From: Elusimicrobiota bacterium
Lineage (GTDB): Bacteria > Elusimicrobiota > Elusimicrobia > Elusimicrobiales > UBA9959
Assembly: GCA_019135865.1 (NCBI GenBank)
Contig: JAGVVD010000037.1
Location: 12,771 to 76,770 of the forward strand
Direction: 5' to 3'
DNA length: 64,000 bases
Under the pieces are notes generated by a model, which worked only from the letters and a program-made list of their open reading frames with translations, did not search any database and had not been told where the DNA came from. A program made the translations under genes and the position numbers. Each line of letters starts with the position of its first letter. The stretch's first letter is position 1. Below, in pieces: positions 5,040-20,808 of the stretch.

Positions 5040-5091
5040 TCCAATATCCAATCGCTGATTTATACACATAAATCCGAATTTAACCCATTTT

Positions 5092-6045: not shown

Positions 6046-8448
6046 TCAATCCCCAAGATGTATCACTCTCGCTTCATCGAAAATGTCCGCGATACCATTC
6101 CCGTTCAAGTCTTCAAGAACATCGTAAACTCCATTGTCGTTTGAGTCTTTCCTCCCTTTCGCCTTAATATCGAAATTGCTGGTAAAGACTCCCTCAATTA
6201 ACGCCCCGTTCCAATCTATTAATCCTGTCCCGTCACAGTTTCCGTACAGCATCTGCTCATATCGTTTTTTGCCGGAGACATATATCGTTCTTTCCAGTAT
6301 TTTAGGACATTCCGTGGCCAGCCACAGCTTTCTCATATTGGCGCCGTTTACCGGAGCCGCCTGTATGTCCACTGCCTCGCCGAACTGATGGACGCTGTTC
6401 CAGACGCCGCCTTCGCGTCTGTTGTGCCTGGCGCTGCGGTAGCCGCTTGTGACCCGCACCCCGAACTCACCCTGAAAGCCGGCCCTGAGCGAAAGCGCTT
6501 CCTGCGCACGTTCCCGCGGGTATATGTGCGCGGAACAGTCGCTGTATTTGACGAACTCCCCGTCGGTACCGGGGCTGAACAGGGGACGGGTATATCTGCT
6601 GAAGTAGCCGGGTGCTGTCAGGTCGTACTCCGGCGTGCTCAGGTCGAAATACTCTTGCCGGCATTTGTCAATCGTGTCCTGGCGGATAGAGCGCGGGTAA
6701 GCCTTTACCTTCCCTTTCGGGGTATCCACGCTCGCGTCGATCTTGTACTTCAGCGGGAACTGGCGGCCTGTGGGGGCCTCGGGGACGCGTGTTACATAAA
6801 AATACGTTGCCGGACCGGCGGCGGGATTATCCGGATCGCCGCTGTCCATGTCGTCGTCCTTCGAATCCTCCACCGTCCAGGCTATGCCGGCTGAAAGCGT
6901 GTTGTATTCCGGCGTGTCGGGCTTGAGGTCGGCCGCGAGGTCGACCTTGTTCTCGCCGAAAAGGGTGGTGAACGATACCCCGTCGTTGGGATAGCCGATA
7001 TTGCTAATACGCAGCATCGGCGTGACGTCGGGATTGCCGGCGACGGGCCCGACGTCTTCCGGTTCCGCCGCCATCGAGGGCGGCAACCCCGCCGAGACCG
7101 CGCATCCGGTGCTGGTCCTCTTCTGGCAGGAAGGACAGTACGCGGTATACATGTACGGACCGGTCTTATCCCCCGTCCATACGGAGACGAACGCTATGCC
7201 AAGGTCATTGGTCTGCACGGAACCGGGCATAGCCTGCTGCCCCGCCGCGCCGGGAGGCGCGCCCGCCGCGCTGAAGTTTATATCCAGTCCGGGCTCACCT
7301 TGATGCGTGAGTGTGTTAAATGCCCGCACGATAAAGGCGTTGTTGACCCGGCTGTTTATATCCGCGTATTTATCGCATTGGATAATGCTTAACTCCGTTA
7401 CCTCTTCATTCGTTTTTGCTGTCGCGGTAAAATTCACGGCGGACGCGGCCGTCACGCAGCCAGCGCAGGTCGCTTTCACCGCATACTGGCCTGAAACTGT
7501 CCCGAGCGTCAGGGTCGTCCGCGCTATGCCGTCGGCGTCAGTCGTGAACACCCCTCCGCTCAATGTCGCCCCGTTGACAGGATCCTGTATAGTAAAGGTC
7601 ACCGCTTCTCCAGCTACAGGCTGGCCGGTGTCATCCTGTGTAACCCTGACGGCGAACGGCGACGGAAGCGACTGGGCTGTAAACCAGGTCTGGCCGCCGC
7701 CTGATTCATATGTTAATACTTTGCCTTTGTAACGGACTTCGGCCAGCCCGACGGCGGCGTTGAAACTTATTGAAGGGCTAGGACTGCCCTGGGGGCGTAT
7801 CTGCGACTGCGCACTCATCGCCAGATAGCCGACGAGATAATAAGGCTCCCCTCCTATATCCACGGAAGAGCCGGAAGCCCGGCTCTCTACCGCAAGGATG
7901 GTATCTTTGCTCTCGCTGAAATTGGGGACGGAACTGTCGCTGGCGTATCCCAAGGATGTGACCGGGACCGTTGAAAGAGTACTGGTAAGCGAGGCGGAGA
8001 CGCTCACCGTAGCGATGGGGGCGTATTGCCCTGCGACAACACCCACCAATTTCATGTTCGTCCAACTTATATTCACTGTAGCCGGGACTTTGACTACAAC
8101 CGCTTCATTATTGGGGACTTTGGCGTAAATACGGGAGAGAGAATTAGCATTGGCGGACCCAAAGACGCTGTAGTCGTCAAGAAGTCGAGTCATATTTCCA
8201 TTAACGGATGATTTGGAGGCATTAGCACCGGCGATGTAATAACCGGTATTTAACCCCCGCGACACCGAACAGTCAGGGGTGTTGCAGGCACCGGAGCTGA
8301 CGGCATTGTAATAGACGCTGTACCAGTTCCGGACATAAACATCGGCTGATTCGGTCAGTACCGAGGTTGGGACCTGCGCGTGCACGGCGGGAGCCGGCAG
8401 CGCCGCAAGCGCCGCTAAGGTTATTGTCAATAGTCCTCTGGTAATCAT
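6046..8448 (-). CDS. Secreted multidomain protein: Big_1-like Ig domains plus a C-terminal peptidase M15A (YcbK/DUF882-type zinc peptidoglycan peptidase) domain and a Ca-binding-like tail
   Basis: Signal peptide MITRGLLTITLAALAALPAPAVHAQ. Invasin/Big_1-like segment VRVTQDDTGQPVAGEAVTFTIQDPVNGATLSGGVFTTDADGIARTTLTLGTVSGQYAVKATCAGC. M15A signature VTSGYRSARHNRREGGVWNSVHQFGEAVDI. Asp/Asn/Gly-rich tail DSNDNGVYDVLEDLNGNGIADIFDE. Confidence 0.75.
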   Translation of the reverse strand: MITRGLLTITLAALAALPAPAVHAQVPTSVLTESADVYVRNWYSVYYNAVSSGACNTPDCSVSRGLNTGYYIAGANASKSSVNGNMTRLLDDYSVFGSANANSLSRIYAKVPNNEAVVVKVPATVNISWTNMKLVGVVAGQYAPIATVSVSASLTSTLSTVPVTSLGYASDSSVPNFSESKDTILAVESRASGSSVDIGGEPYYLVGYLAMSAQSQIRPQGSPSPSISFNAAVGLAEVRYKGKVLTYESGGGQTWFTAQSLPSPFAVRVTQDDTGQPVAGEAVTFTIQDPVNGATLSGGVFTTDADGIARTTLTLGTVSGQYAVKATCAGCVTAASAVNFTATAKTNEEVTELSIIQCDKYADINSRVNNAFIVRAFNTLTHQGEPGLDINFSAAGAPPGAAGQQAMPGSVQTNDLGIAFVSVWTGDKTGPYMYTAYCPSCQKRTSTGCAVSAGLPPSMAAEPEDVGPVAGNPDVTPMLRISNIGYPNDGVSFTTLFGENKVDLAADLKPDTPEYNTLSAGIAWTVEDSKDDDMDSGDPDNPAAGPATYFYVTRVPEAPTGRQFPLKYKIDASVDTPKGKVKAYPRSIRQDTIDKCRQEYFDLSTPEYDLTAPGYFSRYTRPLFSPGTDGEFVKYSDCSAHIYPRERAQEALSLRAGFQGEFGVRVTSGYRSARHNRREGGVWNSVHQFGEAVDIQAAPVNGANMRKLWLATECPKILERTIYVSGKKRYEQMLYGNCDGTGLIDWNGALIEGVFTSNFDIKAKGRKDSNDNGVYDVLEDLNGNGIADIFDEARVIHLGD

Positions 8449-8816
8449 AAATCCACCGTGCCGCGTTTCACCCTGACCTGCTTGGGGACAGCTTAACGGG
8501 TAAACCCGCCTGAGGCCCTCCCTAGCTGTCGCCCCGGAAAAGACTTATTTTGCAGCACTTCCAGCCAGATCCAGGATTCCGAAGTGTAAAGCAGTTTTTT
8601 TCCTATCCGGAGAGGGATATGCGCTCATTTTGCCCCAATGCAGAACAAAGCCTTCCTTCCCTGAAAGGGCGGCTTTGAAAGTAAAATAGCTCAATGACTG
8701 GTGTCGTCCCCGAACTTCACTGGCACCCCCGCCCGCAGAGTTAGGCAACAAAATTATTGTGGCAAATAAATAACCGGCGCTCAATAGCCTTTTCGGGGTA
8801 TCCCGGAAGCGTCGTT

Positions 8817-9812
8817 TTAGTACTGTCCTTTGGCGGCCTCGCCGCCGGAAACTATGGCTATGCTGGCGCTGGTGCCCAGGCGGGTCGCGCCGGCCTTCAC
8901 CATCGCCGCGGCGACCTCGGCGTTCTTGATGCCGCCGGAGGCCTTCACTCCCATCTCGGGCCCGACGGTCTGGCGCATCAGCGCGACATCCTCTACGGTG
9001 GCCCCGCCGGAGCCGAAACCGGTCGAGGTCTTGACGAAGTCGGCCTGGGCCTGCTTGGACATGCGGCAGGCGCGGACCTTCTCGTCGTTGGTGAGGTACG
9101 AGGTCTCGAGGATGACCTTGAGGCACTTGCCGCGCGTGGCCTCGCGCACGGCCCGGATGTCGTCGAGGACCAGCGCGTCGTTGCCGGACTTGAGCGCGCC
9201 GATGTTTATGACCATGTCGATCTCGTCGGCGCCGTTGGCGATGGCGTCGCGGGCCTCGATGGCCTTGACGGTCGGGGTGGTGGAACCCAGCGGGAAGCCG
9301 ATGACGGTGCAGACCATCACGCCGCTGCCGCGCAGCAGGCGGGAGGCCATGGCAACGTAGCCGGGATTCACGCAGACGCTGGCGAACTTGTGCTTGCGCG
9401 CTTCCTCGCAGAGCTTGCCTATCTCCTCCTGCGTGGCGTTGGCCTTGAGCAGGGTGTGGTCTATCATGCCGGCGATGGAGGAACTGCCCGCTCCGGGGTT
9501 GCAGAAGCTGACGCGCTCCACGCCCATGCCTTTGACCTGCTGGGCGGTGAAATTGTTCAGCGGGTTGCAGCTCTGGCAGGTGCCGGAACAGGTGTTCTCC
9601 TCGAGCCGGCAGTCCGGGTTGCGCTTAGGCGCCGGGGACTGGGGACCGGTCTGTCCGCCGACGAGCGGGTTAGAGAAGACCTTGCCGGCGCTGCCCATGG
9701 TGACGCGGCCTTCCGGGGGAAGGCTCTTCTGGCCCCGCGGGGCGGCGTCCTCTTTCGCCCGCATTATCCTGGCGACTTCCTCGGCTATCTTCCTTATGTC
9801 TTCTTCACGCAT
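8817..9812 (-). CDS. deoC: Deoxyribose-phosphate aldolase (DERA) with a ~110-aa N-terminal extension (encapsulation-peptide-like helix plus Cys-rich linker)
   Basis: Core [38 protein letters not shown]...[12 protein letters not shown]...[17 protein letters not shown]...LKVILET...[39 protein letters not shown]...GATRLGTSA is a short-type DERA, and both catalytic Lys contexts are present. The N-terminus is [19 protein letters not shown]. The start overlaps the upstream BMC-P gene by 8 nt. Confidence 0.93.
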
Positions 9813-10104
9813 ATTTCTTTACCCCTTTCTCGCAGCTGACCTGGTCCACTATGCCGCAGATGACGGTGCGGACCGGCGCTTTCGGGTTCCTGAGTATCTT
9901 CCTGGCGCCGCCGCCCTCGTCCATGACGAGCACGACGTCGCCCGGGCCGGCGCCGACGCCGCCGTCGAGCGCCAGGGTGGCGTCGCCGGTGAACTCGCCG
10001 GAACCGGACGGATCGACGGGCCTCACCAGCAGCAGCGCGGGGCCTTCCAGCCCCTTGTGCTTGCGGGTAGCCCATACATTTCCAACGACTTTTCCTACGA
10101 ACAT
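9805..10104 (-). CDS. BMC-P vertex protein (EutN/CcmL family), paralog 1
   Basis: [31 protein letters not shown]...[22 protein letters not shown]...[13 protein letters not shown] is a typical EutN/CcmL pentamer sequence. Confidence 0.9.
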
Positions 10105-10108
10105 AAAT

Positions 10109-10405
10109 TCAGATAAGTTTCTTGCCGTCTATGATGCCCACTATGGCCGCGTCCACGGGCGGCAGGTTAGACTTCGAGGAAGTCTCTCCCTCCCAGCCCT
10201 CGAAGGCCACTATGGCCTCGCGCGAGGCCACGAAGAAGACCGTCTCGCCGGCGCCGGCGCCGACGGTGTCGGCGGCCACCAGAGGGTCGCCGGAAGGGGC
10301 GTCGGTGACCCAGTCGAGCGGCTGCACCAGCAACAGCGTCTTCCGGTCCATGCCGCAGCACTGCTGCGAGCAGAACACCCTTCCGATGACCTTGGCCTGC
10401 TTCAT
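10109..10405 (-). CDS. BMC-P vertex protein (EutN/CcmL family), paralog 2
   Basis: MKQAKVIGRVFCSQQCCGMDRKTLLLVQPLD...AADTVGAGAGETVFFVASREA...VDAAIVGIIDG. It shows the EutN/CcmL pattern but is more divergent, with an inserted WEGETSSKSN segment. Confidence 0.85.
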   Translation of the reverse strand: MKQAKVIGRVFCSQQCCGMDRKTLLLVQPLDWVTDAPSGDPLVAADTVGAGAGETVFFVASREAIVAFEGWEGETSSKSNLPPVDAAIVGIIDGKKLI

Positions 10406-10412
10406 TCAAATC

Positions 10413-10859
10413 CTAGCAGCAGCGCTGCTCTATCGCCGTGATCTTGTCCAGCCGCTTCTGGTACTTCCCCCCCTCGAAAGGGGTGGAGAGCCAGACGCGC
10501 AGCATCTCCTGCAGCGCCAGCTCGCCGTGGGTCTTGCCGCCCAGGCAGAGCACGTTGCAGTCCTCGTGCGCCGCCGCGAAGCGCGCCGAGATGACGTCGT
10601 AGGCGGCCACGGCCCTGATGCCGTGTATCTTGTTGGCGGCCAGCGGCATGGCGCCGTTGAAGCCGTCTATGAGAACGCCCTTCTCGAACTCGTGCTTGCG
10701 CACGGCGTCGCCGACGAGCATCGCTATATCCGGGAAATCGACCGACTCCGTGGAATAGCAGCCGAAATCCGTCACCTCGTGGCCGAGGGTCTGGAGGTAT
10801 TTCTTGAGCTTCTCCTTGGCCTCGAAGCCCGCGTGGTCGGCGCCTATGACGATCTTCAT
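10413..10859 (-). CDS. RpiB/LacAB-family sugar-phosphate isomerase with non-canonical active-site residues
   Basis: MKIVIGADHAGFEAKEKL...VLIDGFNGAMPLAANKIHGIRAVAAYD...AHEDCNVLCLGGK...FEGGKYQKRLDKITAIEQ aligns along its length with RpiB as I recall it. Where E. coli RpiB has ICGTGVGISIAANK, this protein has IDGFNGAMPLAANK. Confidence 0.85.
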   Translation of the reverse strand: MKIVIGADHAGFEAKEKLKKYLQTLGHEVTDFGCYSTESVDFPDIAMLVGDAVRKHEFEKGVLIDGFNGAMPLAANKIHGIRAVAAYDVISARFAAAHEDCNVLCLGGKTHGELALQEMLRVWLSTPFEGGKYQKRLDKITAIEQRCC

Positions 10860-10867
10860 ATCAGCTC

Positions 10868-11416
10868 CTATATCGCGCCCGCGAGATGTTCGTGCGCGTT
10901 CGGGATGACTATGCGGCTCACCACCGCGTCCTCGCCTACCGCCTTCACGCCCGCGGCCACGGCCGTGCGCACCGCGCCGACCTCGCCGTTGACGGTGAAG
11001 TAGCCCTTGCCGCCTATGCCCTTGCCGGTATTGACCTCGGCGACGTGGACGAAGGCCGCCTTGGCGGCCGCGTCGGCGGCGAACAGGGCGGGCAGCGCCT
11101 CTTTGGTCTCCACCATGCCGACGGCTTCCAGCGCGGCGGGCTTGACTTTCTTGTTGAGGGCGGCCAGCGCGCCCGCGTGGACATTGCGGATGATGTGGCG
11201 CGCGATAAGCGTATTGCCCGCGATCTCGGCGCCCTTGGAGAGCGAGGATTCCACCTCTCCGACGGGGCCGGCGATGACGATTATGTATTTGCCCTTGGAG
11301 ATGGCCTGGTGGAGTTTAGGCTCCACGCCGGCCGCCTTGCACATCGCGTCCAGCGCTTCGATGCCCTTGGCTATCGAGGAAGTTTCCATCATGCCTATCG
11401 AAATATTGGCCTGCAT
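10868..11416 (-). CDS. BMC-T shell protein (tandem BMC domains, PduT-like architecture, lacks the PduT cluster cysteine)
   Basis: Two BMC domains: IGMMETSSIAKGIEALDAMCKAA...KYIIVIAGPVGEVESSL and LEAVGMVETKEALPALFAADAAAKAA...GKGYFTVNGEVGAVRTAVAAG. Start moved to ATG 11416 (AAGGAG 6 nt upstream); the ORF track begins at 11473. The PduT ICPGK position reads ISKGK. Confidence 0.88.
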   Translation of the reverse strand: MQANISIGMMETSSIAKGIEALDAMCKAAGVEPKLHQAISKGKYIIVIAGPVGEVESSLSKGAEIAGNTLIARHIIRNVHAGALAALNKKVKPAALEAVGMVETKEALPALFAADAAAKAAFVHVAEVNTGKGIGGKGYFTVNGEVGAVRTAVAAGVKAVGEDAVVSRIVIPNAHEHLAGAI

Positions 11417-11439
11417 CTGTTTCTCCTTAAGAGTACGCC

Positions 11440-12864
11440 TTAAGCTATCCTGAGGTCGCCGACCACGCTGCACTGCAGCGGGCGGACGAAATGGCTGGTC
11501 TTGGTGATGCCGTCGCCGGTCGGGGTGCCGATGGACATCGAGGCGTAGCCCTCGCCCAGGCCCAGGCCGTGCAGCGTGCAGCCGTTCTTGACGAAGATGG
11601 AGCAGGCCATGCGCCGGCCCATCTTGGTCATGTTCTTCACATTGGTCGAGTACATCCCCGCGCTGTGATGGTTGTTGCCCTCGGCGCGGCGGGCCAGCTG
11701 TACCGCGGCGTCTATGTCGCGGGCCGCGGTCACAGGCAGCACCGGCATCAGCTGCTCGGCGTGGACCAGCGGGTGGTCGTTGGGCACCTCGGCCCAGAGC
11801 ACGCGTATATCGTCGGAGAGGTTCAGGCCGATGGACTTGGCTATAACGGAAGGATTCCTGCCGATGAAATCGCGGTTGATCCTGGGTTCGGGGCCGGGCT
11901 CCAGGATGATCAGCCGGGAAAGCTGGTCCATCTGCGCGCCGGTCAACTCATGGGCGCGGTGGTCCTTGCGCATCGCTTCCAGGAAGCGGGCCCGGGCGGC
12001 CTCCGTGACTATGACTTCCTTCTCGGCTATGCAGAGGACGTTATTGTCGAAACCGCAGCCGGTTATTATCTGCTCCGCGCAGTCCGGGAAGACAGCCGTC
12101 TCGTCGACGACGACCGGCGGGTTGCCGGGGCCGGCGGCTATGGTCTTGCAGGCCTTGCCGGCCGTCATGGCGACCTTCACTATCGCGGGGCCGCCGGTCA
12201 CCAGGTTCATATGCGTGTCCGGGTGGGAAAGCAGCTGCTTGGTGGCCTCCTGCGTCGGCTTGGCTATGGTCGAGACGAGGTTATGGGGCCCGCCGGCGGC
12301 GACTACGGCGGAGTCGAGCGTGCGCACCGCGTCGGCCACGCAGCCCTTGGCGGCCGGGTGCGGCGAGAAGACGGCGGCGTTGCCGGCAGAGAGTATACCG
12401 ATGGCGTTGCTGATGATGGTGGCGACGGGATTGGTGGAGGGCGTTATGGCGGCGACCACGCCGAAAGGCGCGTACTCGACGAGGGCCAGGCCCTTGTCGC
12501 CGGTATAGGCGACGGCGCGCAGGTCCTCGACGCCGGGCGTCTTGTCGGCGCAGACCAGGTTCTTGAGGACTTTGTCGGAGACGCGGCCCATGCCGGTCTC
12601 GGCCACGGCCATCTCCGCCCAGCGGCGGGCGTTGGCGCGGGAGACCTCGCGTATGGCGGAGATCATCTTCTCGCGGGCTTCGAGGCCCATGTCCTGGAAG
12701 CCGGGCTGGGCGCGGTTGGCGGCGGCCACGGCCTGGTCGACGGTATCGAAGACCGGCCCGCCGGAGACGGAGGCGGAAGAAGCGGACGGCGCCGGGCCGG
12801 CGGCTTCGAGGTTCTTCACCACCTCCGCGACTATCTTCCTGAGTTCTTCCTCGTTTATGGACAT
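11440..12864 (-). CDS. CoA-acylating aldehyde dehydrogenase (PduP/EutE-like) with an N-terminal encapsulation-peptide-like helix
   Basis: 474 aa. ALDH fold with the catalytic-Cys context GFDNNVLCIAEKE and a PduP/EutE-like length and organisation. The N-terminus MSINEEELRKIVAEVVKNLEAAG is followed by a Pro/Ser/Ala linker. Confidence 0.9.
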   Translation of the reverse strand: MSINEEELRKIVAEVVKNLEAAGPAPSASSASVSGGPVFDTVDQAVAAANRAQPGFQDMGLEAREKMISAIREVSRANARRWAEMAVAETGMGRVSDKVLKNLVCADKTPGVEDLRAVAYTGDKGLALVEYAPFGVVAAITPSTNPVATIISNAIGILSAGNAAVFSPHPAAKGCVADAVRTLDSAVVAAGGPHNLVSTIAKPTQEATKQLLSHPDTHMNLVTGGPAIVKVAMTAGKACKTIAAGPGNPPVVVDETAVFPDCAEQIITGCGFDNNVLCIAEKEVIVTEAARARFLEAMRKDHRAHELTGAQMDQLSRLIILEPGPEPRINRDFIGRNPSVIAKSIGLNLSDDIRVLWAEVPNDHPLVHAEQLMPVLPVTAARDIDAAVQLARRAEGNNHHSAGMYSTNVKNMTKMGRRMACSIFVKNGCTLHGLGLGEGYASMSIGTPTGDGITKTSHFVRPLQCSVVGDLRIA

Positions 12865-12874
12865 AACGGCTCCG

Positions 12875-13180
12875 TCACTGCATCTTGTTCACGGACTTCT
12901 TGAAGACTATCTTCCCTTCTTTCTCTATGGTGTCGACGATGGCGAAGATGGTGCAGTCGACCGGGGTGCTCTCGGTCTTGGAGGTCTGGCGGGCCGAGGA
13001 GCCCTGCACGAGCAGGACCAGTTCGCCCATGCCCGCGCCGACCGAGTCGACGCCGACGAGCGGGTTGCCCTTGGGCTTGTCGTCCAGGCCCACGGGCTGG
13101 ACCATCAGGAGCTTGGTGCCGACGAGTTTGTCGTCCTTGCGGGTGCAGACTACGTTGCCCACTACTCTGGCGAATAACAT
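12875..13180 (-). CDS. BMC-P vertex protein (EutN/CcmL family), paralog 3
   Basis: MLFARVVGNVVCTRKDDKLVGTKLLMVQPVG...GVDSVGAGMGELVLLVQGSSAR...VDCTIFAIVDTIE. Start moved to ATG 13180 (GGAGGA upstream); the ORF-track start at 13270 would read through a repeat element. Confidence 0.88.
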   Translation of the reverse strand: MLFARVVGNVVCTRKDDKLVGTKLLMVQPVGLDDKPKGNPLVGVDSVGAGMGELVLLVQGSSARQTSKTESTPVDCTIFAIVDTIEKEGKIVFKKSVNKMQ

Positions 13181-13214
13181 ATATCGGTCCTCCGTGAGGG
13201 GCTTCCGGCCGTCG

Positions 13215-13362
13215 AGAACTATGCGGGGTCCTGTCGGCGATCCGCCCGTAAAAAACGCGGTCTCGCACACCGTGCTCGCCGCTCCCTCTCTCGCCGCTCG
13301 CGCTTACGCAAGCTCGCGGCTCCGGAAGGTTTTTCCGGGCGGATCCGCCGCCACCCCCGCTA
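13215..13362 (+). repeat. Intergenic structured repeat, A-type unit (copy 1)
   Basis: gagaactatgcggggtcctgtcggcgatccgcccgtaaaaaacgcggtctcgcacaccgtgctcgcc...cgctcgcgcttacgcaagctcgcggctccggaaggtttttccgggcggatccgccgccaccccc. By eye it is ~85% identical to 27048-27190. The 5-prime arm (13236-13254) can pair with the 3-prime arm (13330-13349). It lies between BMC-H (13406) and BMC-P (13180). Confidence 0.85.
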
Positions 13363-13405
13363 TCCCCTTATCCGGCCGGAAGCGGGGGCGGCGCAGGGAT
13401 CCGTT

Positions 13406-13690
13406 TTATTTCTTCCTGATGTCGGCTATCGGGAGCTTGCCTTCGAGGTCGCCGTGCGGCTGCGGTATGACGTGCACGCTGACCAGTTCGCCGACCTTCT
13501 GGGCGGCGGCGGCGCCGGAGTCGCAGGCGGCGCGGCAGGCGGCGACTTCGCCCCTGAAAAGTATGGTGACCAGGCCGGAGCCGATCTTCTCGTAGGCGAC
13601 CAGCTTGACGTTGGCGGCCTTGACGGCGGCGTCGGCCGCTTCCACGCAGGCGACGAGGCCCTTGGTCTCTATCATTCCGAGTGCTTCCAT
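13406..13690 (-). CDS. BMC-H shell protein (single BMC domain hexamer), second copy
   Basis: [79 protein letters not shown] is a canonical BMC domain. AGGAGGA lies upstream of the ATG. Confidence 0.93.
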
Positions 13691-13744
13691 TGTGTCCTCC
13701 TGTGAACGGGTACCGCGAAATCGGGATACCGCTTATTGAATCAT

Positions 13745-13781
13745 TATATATTTTTATGCCACCCGCAAGGGTCCATGGGCT
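13745..13781 (-). promoter_or_regulatory. Candidate internal promoter (AT-rich box with TATAAT) upstream of the second BMC-H gene
   Basis: The minus strand reads cccTTGCGGgtggcataaaaataTATAATgattcaataagc. TATAAT corresponds to plus 13753-13758, ~63 nt upstream of ATG 13690. The spacing to TTGCGG is only 14 nt, so the -35 assignment is weak. Confidence 0.35.
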
Positions 13782-13840
13782 CCGTATCGCATGGGCCCGG
13801 GAGGCGGGCCCCGGGAACGGGCGCTCTTTACGGGGAAGGT

Positions 13841-14443
13841 TCAGGGCCCGGGAGGAGGCGGCCTTTTGATCGCGCCCGTCTTGGCGGCTTTCCCCGCCGG
13901 CAGGGCCTTGACTTCCACCCCCACCCCGAAAGCCCTGGCGCAGGACTCCGGCCCGGAGTCGCCGCGCCGCAGGATATCCCGGAGAACGAGCGTGCGCGCG
14001 TCCAGCCAGCCATGCAGGACTTCGCCCTTGCTGTCGCCATAGCCGGAAGTTATCCGGCTCAGGTAGCAAAAAAGAGTGTCCGCGTTCGTGGAGACCGAGA
14101 CCATGTAGAGCGAATGACCCGAGGCGCATTGAGCCGGGATGCTCCTGGTGCAGGAGGTGGCCCCCCACGGCTTGACCAGCTCGTAGACGAAACGGCTGCT
14201 GTCGGGAGACCAGGCCAGCGCCGCGAACCTCATTCCCCCGAACCCCGGCGTCAGCGGCCTGGCGGAATCCCGGCCGACGAGGTGCATCGCCCCGGCGCCC
14301 GGCCAGGCCGCCCAGTTGCCGTCGGGCGACACATAGCAGGCCTCCGCGCCGGGAGGGCAGGAGACCGGCTCCGGAACGCCGGCGGCGGATGAAAGAACGG
14401 AGCAGGCCAGGATGCAGGCGGATATTCGGAAAAGGCTGCGCAT
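13841..14443 (-). CDS. Hypothetical secreted protein or lipoprotein embedded in the BMC locus
   Basis: MRSLFRISACILACSVLSSAAG is a signal or lipobox-like N-terminus (start moved to ATG 14443). Composition is normal, with short PD40/WD40-like motifs (SPDGNWAA, WSPDSSRFVY), unlike the Arg/Gly/Pro-rich junk in the overlapping alternative frames. No family recognised. Confidence 0.55.
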   Translation of the reverse strand: MRSLFRISACILACSVLSSAAGVPEPVSCPPGAEACYVSPDGNWAAWPGAGAMHLVGRDSARPLTPGFGGMRFAALAWSPDSSRFVYELVKPWGATSCTRSIPAQCASGHSLYMVSVSTNADTLFCYLSRITSGYGDSKGEVLHGWLDARTLVLRDILRRGDSGPESCARAFGVGVEVKALPAGKAAKTGAIKRPPPPGP

Positions 14444-14483
14444 CGGTTCCCTCCCGGGCGCTGTCATGAGGCGGTCCGCCGCC

Positions 14484-15122
14484 TCAGACGATATAGGCCG
14501 GGTCGTTGTTGCGCAACCCGGCGGCGTTGGCTTCCTCGGTGTCGAGGTGGAGTTCCAGCGCGTACTTGTCGGAAACCCGGCAGAGCACGGCCTCGTAGAC
14601 GGCGGCGCGGTCGCCGCGGCCGCAGCGGATGCGCACTTCCATGCCGTCCTTTATCTTCATCTTTTCCGCGTCCTTGGGGTGGAAATGTATGTGGCGCTTG
14701 GAAAGTATCACGCCGCGGTCGATGGTCACGGAGCCTTTGGGGCCGATGAGCTTCACGCCGGGCGAATTGTCGAGCTTGCCGGAATCCCGTATGGGAGGAT
14801 CGATGCCCAGGGTCCTGGCGTCGGCCAGCGAGACCTCGATCTGGGTGTAGGGCCGGTAGGGGCCGATGAGGCGGACGTTCTTGAGCGAGCCCTTGGGACC
14901 TTCGACGGTGATGAGCTCGTTGCAGGCGTAAAAGCCGGGCTGGCGGAGCTGGCGGAACTGGCAGGGTTCGGCGTCGGCGCCGAACAGGGCCTTGAAATGC
15001 TCTTTGGTGATGTGGAAGTGGCGGTTGGAGATGCCGACGGGCACGGGCATGGAGCTGCGCTCCTGCCTGAGTTTCAGGTCCTCGATTATTTCCTTCACCA
15101 GTTTCTCGTCCATAATATACAC
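14484..15122 (-). CDS. pduL: Phosphate acyltransferase PduL (phosphotransacylase of BMC metabolosomes) with an N-terminal encapsulation-peptide-like helix
   Basis: Two PduL repeats with His motifs (VGISNRHFHITKEHFKALFG and VILSKRHIHFHPKDAEKM), ...GPKGSLKNVRLIGP...QIEVSLADARTLGI..., and LELHLDTEEANAAGL. N-terminus MYIMDEKLVKEIIEDLKL. Confidence 0.92.
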   Translation of the reverse strand: MYIMDEKLVKEIIEDLKLRQERSSMPVPVGISNRHFHITKEHFKALFGADAEPCQFRQLRQPGFYACNELITVEGPKGSLKNVRLIGPYRPYTQIEVSLADARTLGIDPPIRDSGKLDNSPGVKLIGPKGSVTIDRGVILSKRHIHFHPKDAEKMKIKDGMEVRIRCGRGDRAAVYEAVLCRVSDKYALELHLDTEEANAAGLRNNDPAYIV

Positions 15123-15145
15123 CTTCTGTTGCCCCCCTTAAGGGA

Positions 15146-15299
15146 ACAGCCGGGGGAGGCGGGGCGGCAGCTTAGCAAAACCTTCACGGAGGCCGGAGCA
15201 TCGTAAGCGCGGAGGCCGAGTGAGGAGGGCCGAGCGCTATGCGCGAGAGCCCGTGTTTTGCGGGCTGCCGCCCCGACATGCCCCCGGCATAGTTATTCC
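15146..15299 (-). repeat. Intergenic structured repeat, B-type unit (copy 2), in inverse orientation relative to A-type
   Basis: 154 nt that differ from 27225-27378 at only 3 positions by my count. An internal long-range stem is possible (ggcggcagc at ~15163-15171 with gctgccgcc at ~15265-15273). The reverse complement is ~65% similar to the A-type units. Confidence 0.9.
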
Positions 15300-15300
15300 G

Positions 15301-15388
15301 ATCGCCGGACCGAGGTCGGAGCGCGAGCACGGTGTGCGAGCGGCGTTTTTTCGTGGTGAGCCCCCGCCGGCCCCCGGCATAGTTCTCC
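15301..15388 (-). repeat. Intergenic repeat, truncated A-type half unit in inverse orientation (copy 3)
   Basis: The reverse complement, ggagaactatgccgggggccggcgggggctcaccacgaaaaaacgccgctcgcacaccgtgctcgcgctccgacctcgg, matches the 5-prime half of the A-type unit at 13215. It ends 5 nt from the tpiA stop codon. Confidence 0.75.
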
Positions 15389-15393
15389 TTACC

Positions 15394-16170
15394 CTACTTC
15401 GCCAGCACGGGCTGGAAATGTATCACGCGCAGGAACTTGTCGGCCTTGAGGCTCTCGCCCCCGACCAGCGCGCCGTCTATATCGGGCTGCGCCATCAGCT
15501 CGTCCACGTTATCGGCCTTCACCGAGCCGCCGTAGAGTATCCGCACGGCCGCGGCGAAGTCCCTGCCGTAAAGCCTTTCCATCTGCTTGCGCACGAAGGT
15601 GTGGGCGTCCTGCGCCTGCTCGGGGGTGGCGGTCTTGCCGGTGCCTATCGCCCAGACGGGCTCGTAGGCGATGACGACCTTGGCGGCGTCGGCCGCGGGG
15701 ATGCCGGCGTAGGCGCCGGTCAGCTGGGTCTCGAGCACGCGGTAGGTCCGCTGGGACTCGCGCTCCTCCAGCGTCTCGCCGATGCAGAGCACCGGCAGCA
15801 GGCGCGCCTTGAGGGCGGCCTTGACCTTCTTGTTTATCACCTCGTCGGTCTCGAGGAAGATCTTGCGGCGCTCGCTGTGGCCGACGATGGCGTGCGAGCA
15901 GCCGGCGTCGAGCAGCTGCGACGGGGCGACCGCGCCGGTGAAAGCGCCTTTCTCCTCCCAGCAGACGTCCTGCGACGAGAGGAATATCCTGGAGCCGCCC
16001 AGGGCGGCCTTTACGGCGTGCAGGCCGGTGAACGACGGGGCCAGCAGCACGTCGTGCTTCAGGTCCGGGTCCAGGCCCTTGTTTATGGCGGCGGCCAGAT
16101 CGGCGGCCTCCTTCGCGGTCATGTGCATCTTCCAGTTGCCGGCGATAAGGGGTCTGCGGTTCGGGTTCAT
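15394..16170 (-). CDS. tpiA: Triosephosphate isomerase
   Basis: PLIAGNWKMH, VGHSERR and IAYEPVWAIGTGKTATPEQA are the canonical TIM catalytic motifs. 258 aa, with GAGGAG upstream of the ATG. Confidence 0.95.
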   Translation of the reverse strand: MNPNRRPLIAGNWKMHMTAKEAADLAAAINKGLDPDLKHDVLLAPSFTGLHAVKAALGGSRIFLSSQDVCWEEKGAFTGAVAPSQLLDAGCSHAIVGHSERRKIFLETDEVINKKVKAALKARLLPVLCIGETLEERESQRTYRVLETQLTGAYAGIPAADAAKVVIAYEPVWAIGTGKTATPEQAQDAHTFVRKQMERLYGRDFAAAVRILYGGSVKADNVDELMAQPDIDGALVGGESLKADKFLRVIHFQPVLAK

Positions 16171-16186
16171 TTCGGGTCTCCTCGTT

Positions 16187-16744
16187 TCAGATCAACTCGT
16201 TCAAAAGTTCTTTGCGCGGCTGCGGTATGACGACCTTCTCGACCAGCAGCCCGCGGCGCGCCACCACGGCGGCGCCCGCCTCCACGGCCGTCCCGGCCGC
16301 GGCCACGCTGCCGGTCAGCGTCACGAACGCCTTGCCGCCCAGCGCCATCGCCAGGCGTATCTCGATGAGCCGCACGTCGGCGGCCTTGACCGCGGCGTCG
16401 GCCGCTTCTATCAGCGCCGAGACCGAGAAAGCCTCTATAACGCCCAGGGATTCCAGCTCGCCGGCCGGGCCTGTACCCTCGATGGCCGGGAAGACCTGCG
16501 GGTGTATGTTCGGGATGACGAACTGGTCCACCAGCGCGTGCGCCGCCTTCGAGGCGCCCGCTTCGACGGCGGCGTTGACCGCGCCCACCTCGCCCGAGAC
16601 CAGTATCACGTACTTGCCGGGACAGATGGAGCGCGAGACCAGGATCCGCACGTCGGAAGTCTTGAGCATCGCGTCGGCCGTCTCGAGCCCCTTCGCTATG
16701 CTCGAAAGTTCCACTCCGCCTATGGCGTTAAGGTTGTTGGCCAT
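16187..16744 (-). CDS. BMC-T shell protein, PduT-like (tandem BMC domains, retains the [4Fe-4S]-ligand cysteine context)
   Basis: IGGVELSSIAKGLETADAMLKTSDVRILVSRSICPGKYVILVSGEVGAV... closely parallels Salmonella PduT as I recall it ([46 protein letters not shown]). Cys41 codon at 16622-16624. The second domain is [25 protein letters not shown]...GGKAFVTLTGSVAAAGTAVEAG. 185 aa, against ~184 aa for PduT. Confidence 0.88.
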   Translation of the reverse strand: MANNLNAIGGVELSSIAKGLETADAMLKTSDVRILVSRSICPGKYVILVSGEVGAVNAAVEAGASKAAHALVDQFVIPNIHPQVFPAIEGTGPAGELESLGVIEAFSVSALIEAADAAVKAADVRLIEIRLAMALGGKAFVTLTGSVAAAGTAVEAGAAVVARRGLLVEKVVIPQPRKELLNELI

Positions 16745-16745
16745 G

Positions 16746-18092
16746 TCAGTCCGCCTTGATCTCCACGTAAATATGGTTCACCTTCGTCACCACGCCGTCC
16801 ACGCTGGCGTGCACGGGGCAGCCCAGCTTGTCGGCCGGCAGGTCGCCCACGACCTCCCCCCGCCGTACGCGCTGTCCCTCTTTCACGGAAGGGGAGCAGG
16901 GCGCGCCTATATGCTGCGACATCTGTATGCGCACCGAACCGGGCCGGTACTTGAGGTCCTGATAGGGGGCGTCCGTGAGATGATCCTCGAGGCCCAGCCT
17001 TTTTACCAGCCGCGAGACCGGGACCTTGCGGAAATCGCGCAGCGGATGGGCCTGGTTGGACGAGCGGCCGGCCAGCGAAGAGTTCTTGAGCCCGGTCTTC
17101 AGCTCCCGCAGGTCGCCCTTGGCGGCGACGCAGGCCTCGCGCGGATGCAGGTTCTCGGGGCAGGAGTAGAGGCTGCAGAGAGAACATTCGCAGCAGGCCA
17201 GGGCGTATTCGCTGTGCAGTTTCTTATCGGGACCGCCGGAAAAAAGCAGGCTGCGCATGACGCGGTGAGGCTGCACCTGGTGGCCCAGCAGGTAGCGCGG
17301 GCAGAACTCGGTGCAGAAAGAGCACTGGTCGCAGGCCGACTTGCCGATGCGCGAGAACACCGGCCGCGGCTGGGCCTTCTTCTGTATCAGGGGATGGTCC
17401 TTGGGCAGCACTATGAGCCCGCCGGAGGCCCTGTTCACTATGGTCGAGAAATCGGGGATGACCTTGCCCATCATGGGGCCGCCGTCTATGCCGGCGGGGT
17501 CCTTGACCGTCGCGCCGCCGCACAGTTCCACGGCCTCGGCGTAGGTCACGCCTATCGGCACCTTGAAAGTGGACGGCTGCTTCACCGCTCCGGCCACCGT
17601 TATCCATTTCTCGGTCACGGGCGTCTCTTCCGCGCGGGCGGCGTTGTAAAGGGTCTCGACATTGCTGACCACGCAGCCCACGTCGAGCGGTATGCCGCCG
17701 GCGGGAACGATCCTGCCGGTCAGTTCGGCGACCAGGCACTGCTCGTCGCCCGCGGGATAATAATCGCCCATGGGCCCGACGGAGATATTGCGGCGGCTCC
17801 GTGCTATCTCCTCCAGCCGCTTCACCAGCTTTTCGTGCTTGCGCTTGATGCCGAAAATGCCGGCGGAGGCGCCGACTGCCCGCATCATCAGCTCCAGGCC
17901 GTCGAAAACTTTTTCCGCGTGCAGCTCCAGCAGCTTCTGGTCCTTTTTCAGCAGCGGCTCGCATTCGGCCGCGTTGACCAGCACGAACTCCGCTTTCCCC
18001 CCCGCCTTGACATAGGCGGGAAAGCCGGCGCCGCCGGCCCCTACCACTCCGGCGGCGCGCAGCTTGGCGGCGAATTCCTGCTGGAAGGACAT
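16746..18092 (-). CDS. PduS/RnfC-like NADH-binding flavo-iron-sulfur oxidoreductase
   Basis: AAGVVGAGGAGFPAYVK...VLVNAAECEPLL is the Complex1_51K/RnfC-type nucleotide-binding region. There are two ferredoxin-type Cys clusters (CDQCSFCTEFCP and CCECSLCSLYSCP). The C-terminal segment QHIGAPCSPSVKEGQRVRRGEVVG...PVHASVDGVV resembles the RnfC barrel-sandwich domain. It starts 1 nt after the PduT-like gene ends. Confidence 0.85.
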   Translation of the reverse strand: MSFQQEFAAKLRAAGVVGAGGAGFPAYVKAGGKAEFVLVNAAECEPLLKKDQKLLELHAEKVFDGLELMMRAVGASAGIFGIKRKHEKLVKRLEEIARSRRNISVGPMGDYYPAGDEQCLVAELTGRIVPAGGIPLDVGCVVSNVETLYNAARAEETPVTEKWITVAGAVKQPSTFKVPIGVTYAEAVELCGGATVKDPAGIDGGPMMGKVIPDFSTIVNRASGGLIVLPKDHPLIQKKAQPRPVFSRIGKSACDQCSFCTEFCPRYLLGHQVQPHRVMRSLLFSGGPDKKLHSEYALACCECSLCSLYSCPENLHPREACVAAKGDLRELKTGLKNSSLAGRSSNQAHPLRDFRKVPVSRLVKRLGLEDHLTDAPYQDLKYRPGSVRIQMSQHIGAPCSPSVKEGQRVRRGEVVGDLPADKLGCPVHASVDGVVTKVNHIYVEIKAD

Positions 18093-18097
18093 CCTTT

Positions 18098-19327
18098 TTA
18101 TCTGGCGGCGACCATGCGCTTCTTGACGGCGGCGGCGAGGCGCTTGATGCCTTCGTCTATCTTTTCCGGGGAGGCGAAGGAGAAGTTCAGGCGCATCGTG
18201 TTCTTGCCGGACCCGTCGGTATGGAAAGCGGAGCCTATGACATAGGCCACGTTCTCCTTGAGCGCGTCCTGGAACATATCGTCGGCGCTCATCTGCTCGG
18301 GCAGGCGCACCCAGAGGAAGAGGCCGCCCTCGGGGTTGGTCCAGGTGACGCCTTCGGGCATGTTCTTCTCGAGCGCGGCTATCATCGTGTTCTTCTTGAT
18401 CCGGTAATCCTTCTTGATTATCTCGATATGCTTCTCGAAATAGCCGGTGCGCAGGAACTCGGCGGCTATGAGCTGGTTGAGGCTGGAGGTGCAGAGGTCC
18501 AGCGACTGCTTGAGTATCTCCAGCTTCTTGATGATCTGCTCGTGGGCCAGTATTATCCCCAGGCGCAGGCCCGGAGCGAAGGTCTTGGAGAGGGTGAACA
18601 GCGAGACGATATTGTCGGTCTTCCTGGTCTCCTTGTCGAGGCGGTAGAGCATCTTCGGCTCCTTGCCCTCGAAGCGGATCTGCCGGTAAGGCGAATCCTC
18701 TATGACGGCGACATTGTACTTGTCGGAAAGTTCGATGACCTTGGCCCGCTTCTCCTCGGAGAGCGTAACGCCGCTGGGGTTCTGGAAGTCGGGCACCAGG
18801 TAGACGAACTTGTAATGCTCGTCCTGCGATCTGAGCCAGGAGAGCTTCTCCTCCAGCTCCTCCGTGGAGACGCCGTCGTCCTCCAGTTTCACGCCGATGA
18901 ACTCGGCGCCGTAGGACTTGAAGACCTGCAGCGCTCCCATGTAGCTGGGCTTCTCGACCAGGACCGGATCGGCGGCGTCGATGAAAAGGCGGCCGACCAT
19001 GTCCAGCGCCTGCTGGCTGGCCGTGGTGATGATGAGGTTCTCCGGCCTGGCGTCTATCCCTTCGTACTTTTTCAGGAATTTAACGAACTCTTCTTTGAGC
19101 TCCGGCAGGCCGTCGGTCGGACCGTACTGGAGGGCGACCTTCCCCTTCTTGGCCATTATCTCCTTGACGGCATCCGCGACGAAATCGTAGGGAAAGTGAT
19201 CGGGCGACGGCAGGCCGCCGGCGAAAGAGATGATACCGGGCTGGTTGGTGGTCTTGAGCAGTTCCCTGATAACGGACGCTTTGGTGCGGCGGGGTGCGGT
19301 TGCGATGTTCTTGGCTATGTCTATCAT
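18098..19327 (-). CDS. PLP-dependent aminotransferase, class I/II (2-aminoadipate/aromatic aminotransferase-like)
   Basis: 409 aa. ...ISFAGGLPSPDHFP..., QYGPTDGLPELKEEF, SLFTLSKTFAPGLRLG (PLP-Lys context) and NPEGGLFLWVRLP. Its stop lies 5 nt before the PduS-like start. GC is visibly lower and the protein is Lys-rich. Confidence 0.85.
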   Translation of the reverse strand: MIDIAKNIATAPRRTKASVIRELLKTTNQPGIISFAGGLPSPDHFPYDFVADAVKEIMAKKGKVALQYGPTDGLPELKEEFVKFLKKYEGIDARPENLIITTASQQALDMVGRLFIDAADPVLVEKPSYMGALQVFKSYGAEFIGVKLEDDGVSTEELEEKLSWLRSQDEHYKFVYLVPDFQNPSGVTLSEEKRAKVIELSDKYNVAVIEDSPYRQIRFEGKEPKMLYRLDKETRKTDNIVSLFTLSKTFAPGLRLGIILAHEQIIKKLEILKQSLDLCTSSLNQLIAAEFLRTGYFEKHIEIIKKDYRIKKNTMIAALEKNMPEGVTWTNPEGGLFLWVRLPEQMSADDMFQDALKENVAYVIGSAFHTDGSGKNTMRLNFSFASPEKIDEGIKRLAAAVKKRMVAAR

Positions 19328-19417
19328 TGCGGCCTCCGGCTTTATATTCGGCGGACCGGTCCGGGCGTCCGCCGCGAGACTTATCAGGGAATAATCTACT
19401 TATTTATAGAGCCCCGT

Positions 19418-20710
19418 TCAAGGAGAATCTGGCGCGCCCGGAGCAGTCCCCAGCGCGGCCGAAAGATAGTCGGCGTTCTCGCGGTAGAACGCCCTCTTCT
19501 CCGGGTCCCGCGCCGAGGAAGCCAGGCGGGAGAAGCTTTTCAGGGCCTTCAGGTAGGCAGAGCGCCGGACCGGGAGCAGGTCCGCCGGGAAAGGCCTGCG
19601 CGTCCTGGCGGAGGCTTCCTCCAGGGAACGCAGCAGCAGGGCCAGGTCCGACACCGGCAGCCCGGAGCCTTTGTCCCGGACATGGGCCGCGGCCTCCAGT
19701 ATCGCCAGCGCCCCCTTGGTGCGCAGTTCCCTGGCGGCCGGGGACCGTTCCCCGGGAGGCAGGGTCTCCTCCGCCTGGGCCAGGCAGTCCAGGGCGAGGA
19801 TATAATCCCCGGCCTCCAGACCGGCGGAACCCAGCGTCAACAGCGCTTCCGCGCTGAAAGAAGGCCAGCGCGAGGAGTAGAAATTCTCCAGGAAGCGGTC
19901 GTAGGCGGCCTTTTCCTTCGCGGACTCCGCCGCCGCCCTCCGGCCGGCCTCGTACTCCGCGTCGTCGCCGGTGGCCAGCGCGGCGATCCTGCCCCCTTCG
20001 GCGCGCGCGCGGGCCCGCGCCTCGGCCCCGGCGAGTTCCGTGTAGCCCATGGCTTCGTCGCGCAGGTAGCGCGACCTGATGTATTCCCGGTACCTGTCCG
20101 CGTCCAGGGAAAGTTCTATGTAGCCGGCCAGGGAATGGGAGGTGTAGACGTCCTGCTCCTCCCCCCGCAGGAAAGCCCGCAGCAGGCCCGGTGAATCGGC
20201 CAGCTTCTCGTGGAAATACAGGTCCTCCGTGAAATACGCCTCGTATTCGAACTCCACGGGATTGGCGTCGGCCGCGCCGGCGCGGTAGCGCGGGTAGAGA
20301 TAGGACTGGAGCGCGTGGACCAGCTCGTGCAGGAAGAGCGCGTCGGCCCTTCCGACGAATTCCGCCCTGGCGGGTTTTCCCGCGTTGAGGATCTCGATCA
20401 TGCGCGAATCGCGGTAACCTTTGACCGCGAAGAACTCCTGCATATGCCGGGTGTTGAAGTATACGGCGTTCCCGACCGGGTCGTACCAGGCCAGCCGCTC
20501 GGCGGGAGCGCGGCGGAGCAGGAGGCGCAGTCCTTCGGACTCGGGCCTGGCGTCCAGCCTGGAAAAGAACTCGCGGCCCGACGGCCGGGCCTCTATGACC
20601 GCCCGGAACTCGCGCAGCAGCTTCGCGCTCAGCGGGTCGTCGTACCGGTAGGCGGCGGCGGGCCGGCAGAGGGAAAAAAGGGCCAGCAGGGCGAGGAGTG
20701 TCTGCCGCAT
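19418..20710 (-). CDS. Hypothetical secreted protein with an HExxH zinc-metallopeptidase-like motif
   Basis: Signal peptide MRQTLLALLALFSLCRPAAA (start moved to ATG 20710). Single motif LFLHELVHALQSY, with an alpha-helical, TPR-like C-terminal half. No family recognised. Confidence 0.55.
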   Translation of the reverse strand: MRQTLLALLALFSLCRPAAAYRYDDPLSAKLLREFRAVIEARPSGREFFSRLDARPESEGLRLLLRRAPAERLAWYDPVGNAVYFNTRHMQEFFAVKGYRDSRMIEILNAGKPARAEFVGRADALFLHELVHALQSYLYPRYRAGAADANPVEFEYEAYFTEDLYFHEKLADSPGLLRAFLRGEEQDVYTSHSLAGYIELSLDADRYREYIRSRYLRDEAMGYTELAGAEARARARAEGGRIAALATGDDAEYEAGRRAAAESAKEKAAYDRFLENFYSSRWPSFSAEALLTLGSAGLEAGDYILALDCLAQAEETLPPGERSPAARELRTKGALAILEAAAHVRDKGSGLPVSDLALLLRSLEEASARTRRPFPADLLPVRRSAYLKALKSFSRLASSARDPEKRAFYRENADYLSAALGTAPGAPDSP

Positions 20711-20808
20711 CCGGATATTATATAGGATTTGACAAGGCCGGGATAATAACATAAATTGGCTCCTGCGGCGGTAGCGCCGCCGATTTGAAAGTTGACAGGG
20801 AGGCGATC

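Follow-up and report, generated by a model that had tools for sequence, protein, structure and literature searches.

The 64,000-nucleotide stretch of DNA analysed here (the window; contig JAGVVD010000037.1, positions 12,771 to 76,770) comes from an Elusimicrobia bacterium and carries a complete and intact locus which, as judged from its predicted proteins, very probably encodes a sugar phosphate utilisation (SPU) metabolosome of subtype SPU1. This is a bacterial microcompartment (BMC) with deoxyribose-5-phosphate aldolase (DERA) as its signature enzyme. SPU systems are among the most widespread microcompartment types and are considered to make DNA debris usable as food for bacteria, with the acetaldehyde kept contained. 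The locus is already known: subtype SPU1 was catalogued in 2021 (Sutter et al. 2021) and a near-identical locus is listed, and another SPU1 locus is nothing new in kind. All coordinates are those of the whole window, all SPU features lie on the minus strand, and the numbers L002-L088 denote the related contigs and DERA loci used for comparison.

Gene content and subtype of the locus

The shell genes and enzymes of the locus are as follows.

200-493, minus strand: BMC-H paralog 2, 97 aa, edge motifs KAAK and PRPA (PF00936, 4.5e-27)
8817-9812, minus strand: DERA, the signature enzyme, 331 aa (PF01791, 5e-20; NCBIfam deoC equivalog)
9805-10104, minus strand: BMC-P, one of an adjacent pair (PF03319, 3e-23)
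10109-10405, minus strand: BMC-P, second of the adjacent pair (PF03319, 1e-20)
10413-10859, minus strand: RpiB-family protein, 148 aa, catalytic Cys replaced by Asp (LIDGFNG), no N-terminal extension (PF02502, 4.5e-45)
10868-11416, minus strand: BMC-T, 182 aa, without pore cysteine (AISKGK; PF00936 twice)
11440-12864, minus strand: CoA-acylating aldehyde dehydrogenase (AldDh), 474 aa, with N-terminal encapsulation-peptide-like helix EELRKIVAEVVKNL and Ala/Pro/Ser linker (PF00171)
12875-13180, minus strand: BMC-P, third paralog, 101 aa (PF03319, 6e-31; orthologs 101-104 aa)
13406-13690, minus strand: BMC-H paralog 1, 94 aa, edge motifs KAAN and PQPH (PF00936, 2e-28)
14484-15122, minus strand: PduL-type phosphotransacylase (PTAC) with N-terminal helix DEKLVKEIIEDLK (PF06130, 4e-69)
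15394-16170, minus strand: triosephosphate isomerase (TPI), 258 aa, no terminal extension (PF00121, 2e-92 over residues 7-251)
16187-16744, minus strand: BMC-T^SE, PduT-type, pore motif CPGK (PF00936 twice)
16746-18092, minus strand: PduS homolog, or metabolosome NADH dehydrogenase (MNdh), 448 aa (PF01512, PF10531, PF13534, PF13375)

All the named enzymes and shell genes clear the Pfam gathering thresholds by wide margins, with E-values from 1e-20 to 1e-92. The third-codon-position GC of the coding frames is 0.81-0.93 in sequence of ~65% GC, and the SPU frames were therefore taken as real coding ones. The original prediction, made from the sequence alone, had read seven shell genes and a set of enzymes as a metabolosome with DERA as signature enzyme and an AldDh and PduL core, and had set it apart from the PDU, EUT and GRM types. 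The Pfam search (PF00936, PF03319, PF06130, PF01791, PF02502, PF00171, PF00121) recovered every one of these genes at the same coordinates and the family matches agree with that reading, while no diol dehydratase, ethanolamine ammonia-lyase or glycyl-radical enzyme was found among the window open reading frames (ORFs) scanned. Its span ends at 18092, the start of the MNdh gene, which it had left unnamed, and its assignment to the SPU type was right as to class but too broad, as the locus matches subtype SPU1 feature by feature in the catalogue comparison.

In Supplementary Data 2 of Sutter et al. 2021, SPU1 consists of 62 loci which are exclusively from Elusimicrobia. As described there, the genes for pfam01791 (DERA) and pfam02502 (RpiB) adjoin two BMC-P genes, and the locus has AldDh, a PduL-type PTAC, a pfam00121 isomerase (TPI) and a BMC-P triplet. 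The two BMC-H paralogs bear the edge motifs KAAK/PRPH and KAA(N/D)/PQPH, and a PduT-type BMC-T with a pore cysteine lies beside a PduS homolog along with a second BMC-T which does not have it. Every item of this description was found in the window locus in gene content, motifs and adjacency; in BMC-H paralog 2, PRPA differs from the catalogued PRPH by a single residue and the other BMC-H edge motifs match SPU1. The general marks of SPU loci that were looked for (a DERA with N-terminal extension, an acylating AldDh, a BMC-P triplet and an Asp-substituted RpiB) are all present, and the PduL-type PTAC and TPI of subtype SPU1 lie in the main locus.

At the 90% identity level the AldDh of the window clusters with A2X29_05465 of Elusimicrobia bacterium GWA2_64_40. 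A BMC-T from the same genome, A2X29_05490, carries the label "bmcType=SPU1 (main)" in the tree file of the catalogue, so the window locus clusters with catalogued SPU1. The gene order TPI-PduL-H-P-AldDh-T-RPI-P-P-DERA-H recurs in 6 related contigs (L002-L005, L084 and L085). Full-length (331-residue) DERA homologs at 60-98% identity are numerous, and the closest full-length homologs of DERA and AldDh, where named, belong to Elusimicrobia or Elusimicrobiales. The window locus carries two lineage-specific insertions.

By homology, the predicted shell set is shown to comprise two BMC-H paralogs, two BMC-T trimers and three BMC-P pentamers. A tblastn search of the whole 64-kb window with all shell proteins returned exactly seven shell genes, with no further BMC-domain gene and no double-stacking BMC-T. 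The three BMC-P proteins share 33-38% pairwise identity, and the shorter starts chosen in the original prediction (11416, 13180 and 493) yield proteins as long as their orthologs on related contigs, at 182, 101 and 97-98 aa. BMC-H paralog 2 is 78-94% identical to the BMC-H located after DERA in L002-L005, L084 and L085 (94% in L084). This second BMC-H lies 20-350 bp beyond DERA in L002-L005 and L084-L087 and 8.3 kb away in the window. The gene at 200-493, described in the original prediction as a detached BMC-H, is indeed a real shell gene; SPU1 loci canonically end their shell genes with it, and in the window an inserted cassette has moved it away.

The practical value of the locus is that a single contig offers a complete and intact example, with the seven shell genes, three enzymes bearing peptide tags and the electron-export module of MNdh and BMC-T, which can be used as a source of constructs for a first SPU1 shell study.

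The signature aldolase and its partner enzymes

The DERA scores 296 bits on the NCBIfam deoC equivalog, against a cutoff of 117. Its layout is an amphipathic helix at residues 3-21, a low-complexity linker, the invariant GxAGKVF motif, a cysteine module and a TIM barrel at residues 110-331, with an extension of ~110 residues preceding the barrel. The barrel aligns end to end with solved DERAs (E 1e-82) and the active-site stretches, including GVKASGG, are intact. An N-terminal extension is reported on all SPU DERAs by Dwyer, Sutter & Kerfeld 2024 (PMC11585597), who curated 206 SPU loci in seven subtypes.

The cysteine module has the pattern C75-x3-C79-x2-C82 ... R100 ... C104 and lies in the region 9468-9812, which encodes residues 1-115. 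In an alignment of 113 full-length DERA sequences (that of the window and 112 homologs), the residues G43, K44, F46, R100 and C104 never vary, C79 and C82 are each kept in 97% and C75 in 82%. The SPU1 relatives L003-L005 have Gly in place of C75 and a His two residues earlier, giving the motif EHTGG..CPxC...CHP, and the extension-bearing DERAs of Sumerlaeota, Myxococcota, Cytophagia and others have C-x8-CxxCxxC in the equivalent region. AlphaFold2 modelling of the full-length protein with the 113 sequences gave pLDDT values of ~90 for the helix at residues 3-21, above 90 for the barrel and ~40-70 for the cysteine module. Pfam assigned no family to the extension alone, and the DERA cysteines are not mentioned in the text of two SPU papers and the 2025 preprint (figures and the 2024 supplements lay outside the search).

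The occurrence of the module was surveyed in 80 DERA loci from genome assemblies, of which 77 were scorable. At least three cysteines in a real extension were found in 14 of the 77, all of them shell-linked or from lineages with satellite DERAs according to Sutter et al. A further 60 had neither nearby shell genes nor the Cys motif, and no Cys-rich extension was found among them apart from L030, which is a spurious upstream reading. Three shell-linked DERAs (L057, L063 and L072) carry a short helix-only extension free of cysteine, so the module is common and not universal. Besides the window, the module was recorded in L002-L006, L010-L013, L016, L022, L047, L049 and L055.

Both the arrangement of the cysteines and the Cys-to-His exchange point to a metal site, either Fe-S or Zn. 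It is a tentative idea, drawn from these residue patterns, that the cysteine module of microcompartment DERAs may bind an Fe-S cluster or zinc. Together with the RpiB-like partner and its invariant Asp, the module might then make up a unit within the organelle core that serves assembly or regulation and depends on metal or redox state. The module and the invariant Asp of the RpiB-like protein could guide experiments on SPU core assembly.

Some DERA genes of the survey (L006, L010, L011 and L012) have 145-240 extra N-terminal residues. Against eut_hyp TIGR02536, the N-terminal domains fused to the shell-linked DERAs of L006, L010 and L011 give weak matches to the family core (E 4e-5 to 3e-3). 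These fusions resemble the flavoprotein-DERA fusion of Hodarchaeales, and the cysteine module is placed between the two domains.

The RpiB-like protein scores 136.1 on the rpiB equivalog, just below the cutoff of 138.65, and in its alignment to 3he8 the CGTG stretch is replaced by DGFN. Asp (xxDGxGx) was found in all 18 of the 18 RPI homologs adjoining extension-bearing DERAs, at 33-100% identity, and the neighbouring His and the last, C-terminal Arg are kept in the same 18. The divergent RPI of L006 retains the Cys. For SPU6, Dwyer et al. (PMC11585597) found the RPI almost inactive on ribose-5-phosphate, isolated a DERA-RPI complex of ~131 kDa, and noted that the catalytic Cys is Asp "in all SPU RPIs". 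The invariant Asp looks like the outcome of selection on an active or binding site and not of decay, and the protein may have a catalytic or ligand-binding role. The protein has no extension because the preceding gene ends 8 nt upstream, and by analogy with the SPU6 pair we infer that it may enter the shell bound to DERA.

Of the core enzymes, the AldDh scores 564 bits on NCBIfam PRK15398 against a cutoff of 403. Its best solved match is the microcompartment-type acylating enzyme 5jfl (2e-111), with the Cys-bearing FDNN.LC.AEKE stretch aligned. The PduL aligns to the solved PduL 5cuo (2e-56), both RH(I/F)H motifs included; its orthologs are called at 209-210 aa, so that the start may be the ATG at 15113 and not the GTG at 15122. 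The TPI translation has the motifs NWKMH, GHSERR and AYEPVWAIGTG. The hydrophobic moments of the N-terminal helices are 0.87 for DERA, 0.63 for AldDh and 0.52 for PduL, against internal means of 0.23-0.29, and these three amphipathic helices, each with a low-complexity linker behind it, probably act as encapsulation peptides.

Proposed pathway, insertions and rival explanations

The organelle most likely breaks down deoxyribose-5-phosphate from DNA. The steps are taken from the models published for SPU and MNdh; for this Elusimicrobia bacterium, both the encapsulation of the enzymes and the substrate used in life are inferred. Deoxyribose-5-phosphate from DNA or nucleoside breakdown would enter the shell, where DERA would split it into glyceraldehyde-3-phosphate and acetaldehyde. 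The acylating AldDh would convert acetaldehyde, CoA and NAD+ to acetyl-CoA and NADH, and PduL would free the CoA by forming acetyl-phosphate, which would exit the shell and yield ATP. The NADH would be re-oxidised inside by MNdh, a flavo-iron-sulfur protein, with the electrons leaving via an Fe-S cluster in the pore of the CPGK-type BMC-T. The TPI may work in the cytosol on exported triose phosphate.

The carbon steps from DERA through acetaldehyde and acetyl-CoA to acetyl-phosphate had been proposed in the original prediction and coincide with the published SPU model. Two of its further statements no longer hold. It had considered that no SPU locus was characterised biochemically or structurally, which is outdated: an extension-free SPU6 DERA was purified and is active on deoxyribose-5-phosphate (PMC11585597), and a 2025 preprint (PMC12747264) reports shell assembly and peptide-dependent cargo recruitment in an SPU-type system of Hodarchaeales. 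It had also left the route of cofactor recycling open, and the MNdh at 16746-18092 beside the CPGK BMC-T corresponds to a characterised module. In PMC11626177 (PNAS 2024) the PduS homolog was renamed MNdh and shown in vitro to form, with the adjacent BMC-T, an NAD+ regeneration module; the BMC-T bears a CP(G/S)K Fe-S pore motif and the electrons are exported through the shell. The same study counted 361 loci which have the MNdh module and yet no alcohol dehydrogenase. The MNdh gene of the window directly adjoins BMC-T^SE with one base between them, and its four-domain make-up is that of the described MNdh. BMC-T^SE has SICPGKY where the other BMC-T has AISKGKY, and its best NCBIfam match is eut_PduT. 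No iron-type alcohol dehydrogenase was found in the window, where the nearest dehydrogenase is of the zinc type on the opposite strand (23185-24225).

The arrangement of the locus is altered at two sites, and the features concerned are given below with the gene at the window edge.

616-8448, minus strand: inserted four-gene cell-surface cassette, 7.8 kb (Pfam; GC drop)
13841-14467, minus strand: lineage-specific ORF, 208 aa, signal-peptide- or lipoprotein-like N-terminus (no Pfam or NCBIfam family)
1-176, minus strand: small conserved gene, truncated to its 5' portion at the window edge (orthologs after the terminal BMC-H)

The cassette is not part of the organelle. Its products are an 800-aa Big_1/Peptidase_M15 protein, a 317-aa protein of unknown type, a 1188-aa protein with eight IPT/TIG repeats and a 296-aa outer-membrane-like protein. 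The GC content is 44-58% over 4000-8800 against ~65% in the flanks. Neither direct or inverted repeats nor a transposase were found at the cassette flanks; the only repeats are the internal TIG repeats, of 264-nt period. The cassette is absent from the equivalent position of L084-L087, and a similar one lies after DERA in L088, where it is preceded by a phage tail-collar domain gene. With the similar cassette in L088, the arrangement has persisted through speciation.

The gap between PduL and BMC-H paralog 1 (13691-14483) is the second variable site among SPU1 loci. In L086 (673-3868) and L088 (689-4649) it holds DUF2238 and three glycosyltransferase genes, in L084 it is 518 bp of non-coding sequence and in L085 there is nothing. 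In the window it holds the 208-aa ORF, which has only a weak PD40 match (E 0.006) and was found only in L082 (88% identity) among the relatives compared. This ORF was considered as a new organelle component and rejected, on its secretion-type N-terminus, its absence from most relatives and the glycosyltransferase genes present there in others.

The product of the small gene at the window edge starts with the helix-like stretch MLTRGDIADALYERLF, which a Pro/Ala/Lys linker joins to FLSDWEIRRL... Orthologs of 80-90 aa lie directly past the BMC-H in L084 (11351-11593), L085 (11344-11616), L086 (9225-9470), L087, L003 and L005. Their C-terminal domain (FLSDWE..ISPLA.DW..GIEI) matches residues 156-206 of TIGR02536 (eut_hyp) over ~50 aa with E ~1e-5, far below the family cutoff; as reported in the SPU literature, full-length eut_hyp is a flavoprotein-like gene in SPU4 loci. 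The small protein has no Pfam match and probably serves as a cargo or adaptor protein of a kind not described so far.

Several observations weigh against a working SPU1 organelle fed on deoxyribose-5-phosphate. DERA activity and electron transfer by MNdh/BMC-T have been demonstrated only for homologs of other organisms. The TPI has no targeting extension, and the pathway offers no evident step for the RpiB-like protein. Phosphopentomutase, nucleoside phosphorylase and acetate kinase were not found in the window and would sit elsewhere in the genome. The ~8 kb cassette and the extra ORF interrupt the cluster, so that co-expression of all shell genes is not assured. Over 1-20000, terminator-like sites do not outnumber those in shuffled sequence. 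Promoter-like sites exceed the mean of the shuffles but are all weak 9-of-12 matches, and with such weak signals no operon boundaries were drawn.

Three other explanations were weighed against this reading. It is possible, though unlikely, that a different or additional sugar phosphate is processed, with deoxyribose-5-phosphate not the sole or main substrate, and that the RpiB-like protein is an active isomerase with an Asp base which works on another substrate or opens the furanose ring for DERA. The Cys-to-Asp change, invariant with the His and C-terminal Arg in the 18 homologs, speaks for it, as does the RpiB of M. tuberculosis, which functions with Glu at that position; the RpiB-like protein is also weakly similar to erythrulose-4-phosphate and galactose-6-phosphate isomerases in NCBIfam, and rare sugar phosphates were not assayed in the SPU6 study (PMC11585597). 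In that study, however, the SPU6 RPI was negligibly active on ribose-5-phosphate and the complex left the DERA kinetics unchanged. The DERA of the window stands well above the deoC equivalog cutoff, and neither transketolase nor another locus enzyme links a pentose phosphate to the aldehyde core. An aldolase metabolosome of another kind (PVM, PVM-like, HO, MIC4 or MUF), in which fuculose phosphate or rhamnulose phosphate is cleaved by a class II aldolase, shares with the window a BMC-P triplet, AldDh, PduL and a PduS/PduT module. It can be set aside almost with certainty, being refuted by the missing defining aldolase: PF00596, the class II family, matched no window ORF scanned, a double-stacking BMC-T is lacking from the window as well, and the aldolase that is present is a class I DeoC equivalog.

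It is very improbable that the locus in this genome is breaking up and the organelle no longer works, the insertions having uncoupled the last BMC-H and the small gene from the operon. Such a process would fit the 7.8 kb cassette of partly lower GC between DERA and that BMC-H, the second insertion site between PduL and BMC-H paralog 1, and the contig of the closest relative (L082, 98% identity), which ends ~300 bp past DERA and suggests strain variation at this site. Against it, all shell and enzyme genes are intact with high third-position GC and their motifs kept, and the displaced BMC-H is 94% identical to its L084 ortholog. In L088 the SPU genes upstream of DERA are intact despite the similar cassette, inside which that contig ends, the terminal BMC-H falling outside the view. 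Split and satellite SPU1 loci are moreover reported as normal by Sutter et al. 2021. An SPU1 metabolosome locus with two insertions is retained as the preferred reading.

Flanking genes and comparison with known systems

Immediately upstream of the locus lies the following gene.

18098-19327, minus strand: class I/II aminotransferase (PF00155, 7e-41)

It adjoins the PduS gene in L082 and L084 and the TPI-DERA pair in the shell-less L007, and is probably a conserved neighbour and not an organelle component. A role as pathway member was rejected as unsupported, the gene also standing beside TPI-DERA in L007 where there are no shell genes at all. In L007 (Elusimicrobium sp. contig DYLH01000030.1, 7834-10699) the order is aminotransferase-TPI-DERA and the DERA has no extension; L068 was noted alongside it. 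The L007 DERA barrel is 69% identical to that of the window and is nearer to it than some SPU1 DERAs. This arrangement suggests either a secondary loss of organelle genes or that the shell and core block was set between an older TPI-DERA pair, and it points to the aminotransferase, and perhaps also the TPI, as a neighbour and not an organelle part.

Further upstream, a 444-aa secreted protein of no family (19418-20752), whose L084 ortholog shares 45% identity with it, and a GH57 branching-enzyme-like gene (21085-22983) have no apparent link to the organelle. The remaining window genes are housekeeping ones (purH, ligA, nusB, polA, rho, prfA, smc and others). A thymidine kinase (41161-41763) was considered as a supply of deoxyribose-5-phosphate and discarded, being an enzyme of salvage and not catabolism; beside it, far from the locus, a transposase-domain (DUF772) ORF fragment (40597-41097) is the sole mobile-element signature seen in the window. 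No obvious regulator was found in the window, and Rfam at the gathering threshold gave no riboswitch or other RNA family over 1-24000.

Among the known systems, the SPU locus of Hodarchaeales (PMC12747264) has, like the window, a DERA and AldDh core, PTAC, RPI, TPI, MNdh with a CPGK BMC-T and three BMC-P proteins. The DERA-flavoprotein fusion, the PTAC-citrate synthase fusion and the one BMC-P with a DNA-binding tail are features of the archaeal system, and none of them is in the window. The SPU6 locus of Chloroflexi bacterium GWB2_54_36 shares with the window an extended DERA, a Cys-to-Asp RpiB, an acylating AldDh and the BMC-P triplet. SPU6 differs in that it has a double-stacking BMC-T, lacks PTAC and PduS, carries the AldDh peptide at the C-terminus and has an RPI with its own N-terminal peptide and a ~75-residue linker; the window locus has PTAC, TPI and MNdh/BMC-T^SE, an AldDh with its peptide at the N-terminus and an RPI free of any extension.

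The MNdh/BMC-T^SE module described in PMC11626177 was characterised from Clostridium botulinum, and the Elusimicrobia pair is a putative counterpart. As in the window, it consists of a four-domain PduS homolog adjoining a tandem-BMC protein with CPGK, and it was proposed to account for loci which, like that of the window, have AldDh and no alcohol dehydrogenase. In some SPU1 genomes the module lies in a satellite locus or is missing from the main locus. With the SPU1 loci of Sutter et al. 2021, GWA2_64_40 being an example, the agreement is closest. The window differs from that catalogue in the terminal BMC-H lying 8.3 kb off DERA, the extra 208-aa ORF and PRPA in place of PRPH. It has in common with it the same enzyme set, an AldDh with N-terminal peptide, the same phylum and gene order, and the same shell set including charge-complementary BMC-H paralogs, and the identity between its AldDh and the one from a catalogued SPU1 locus is 90% or more.

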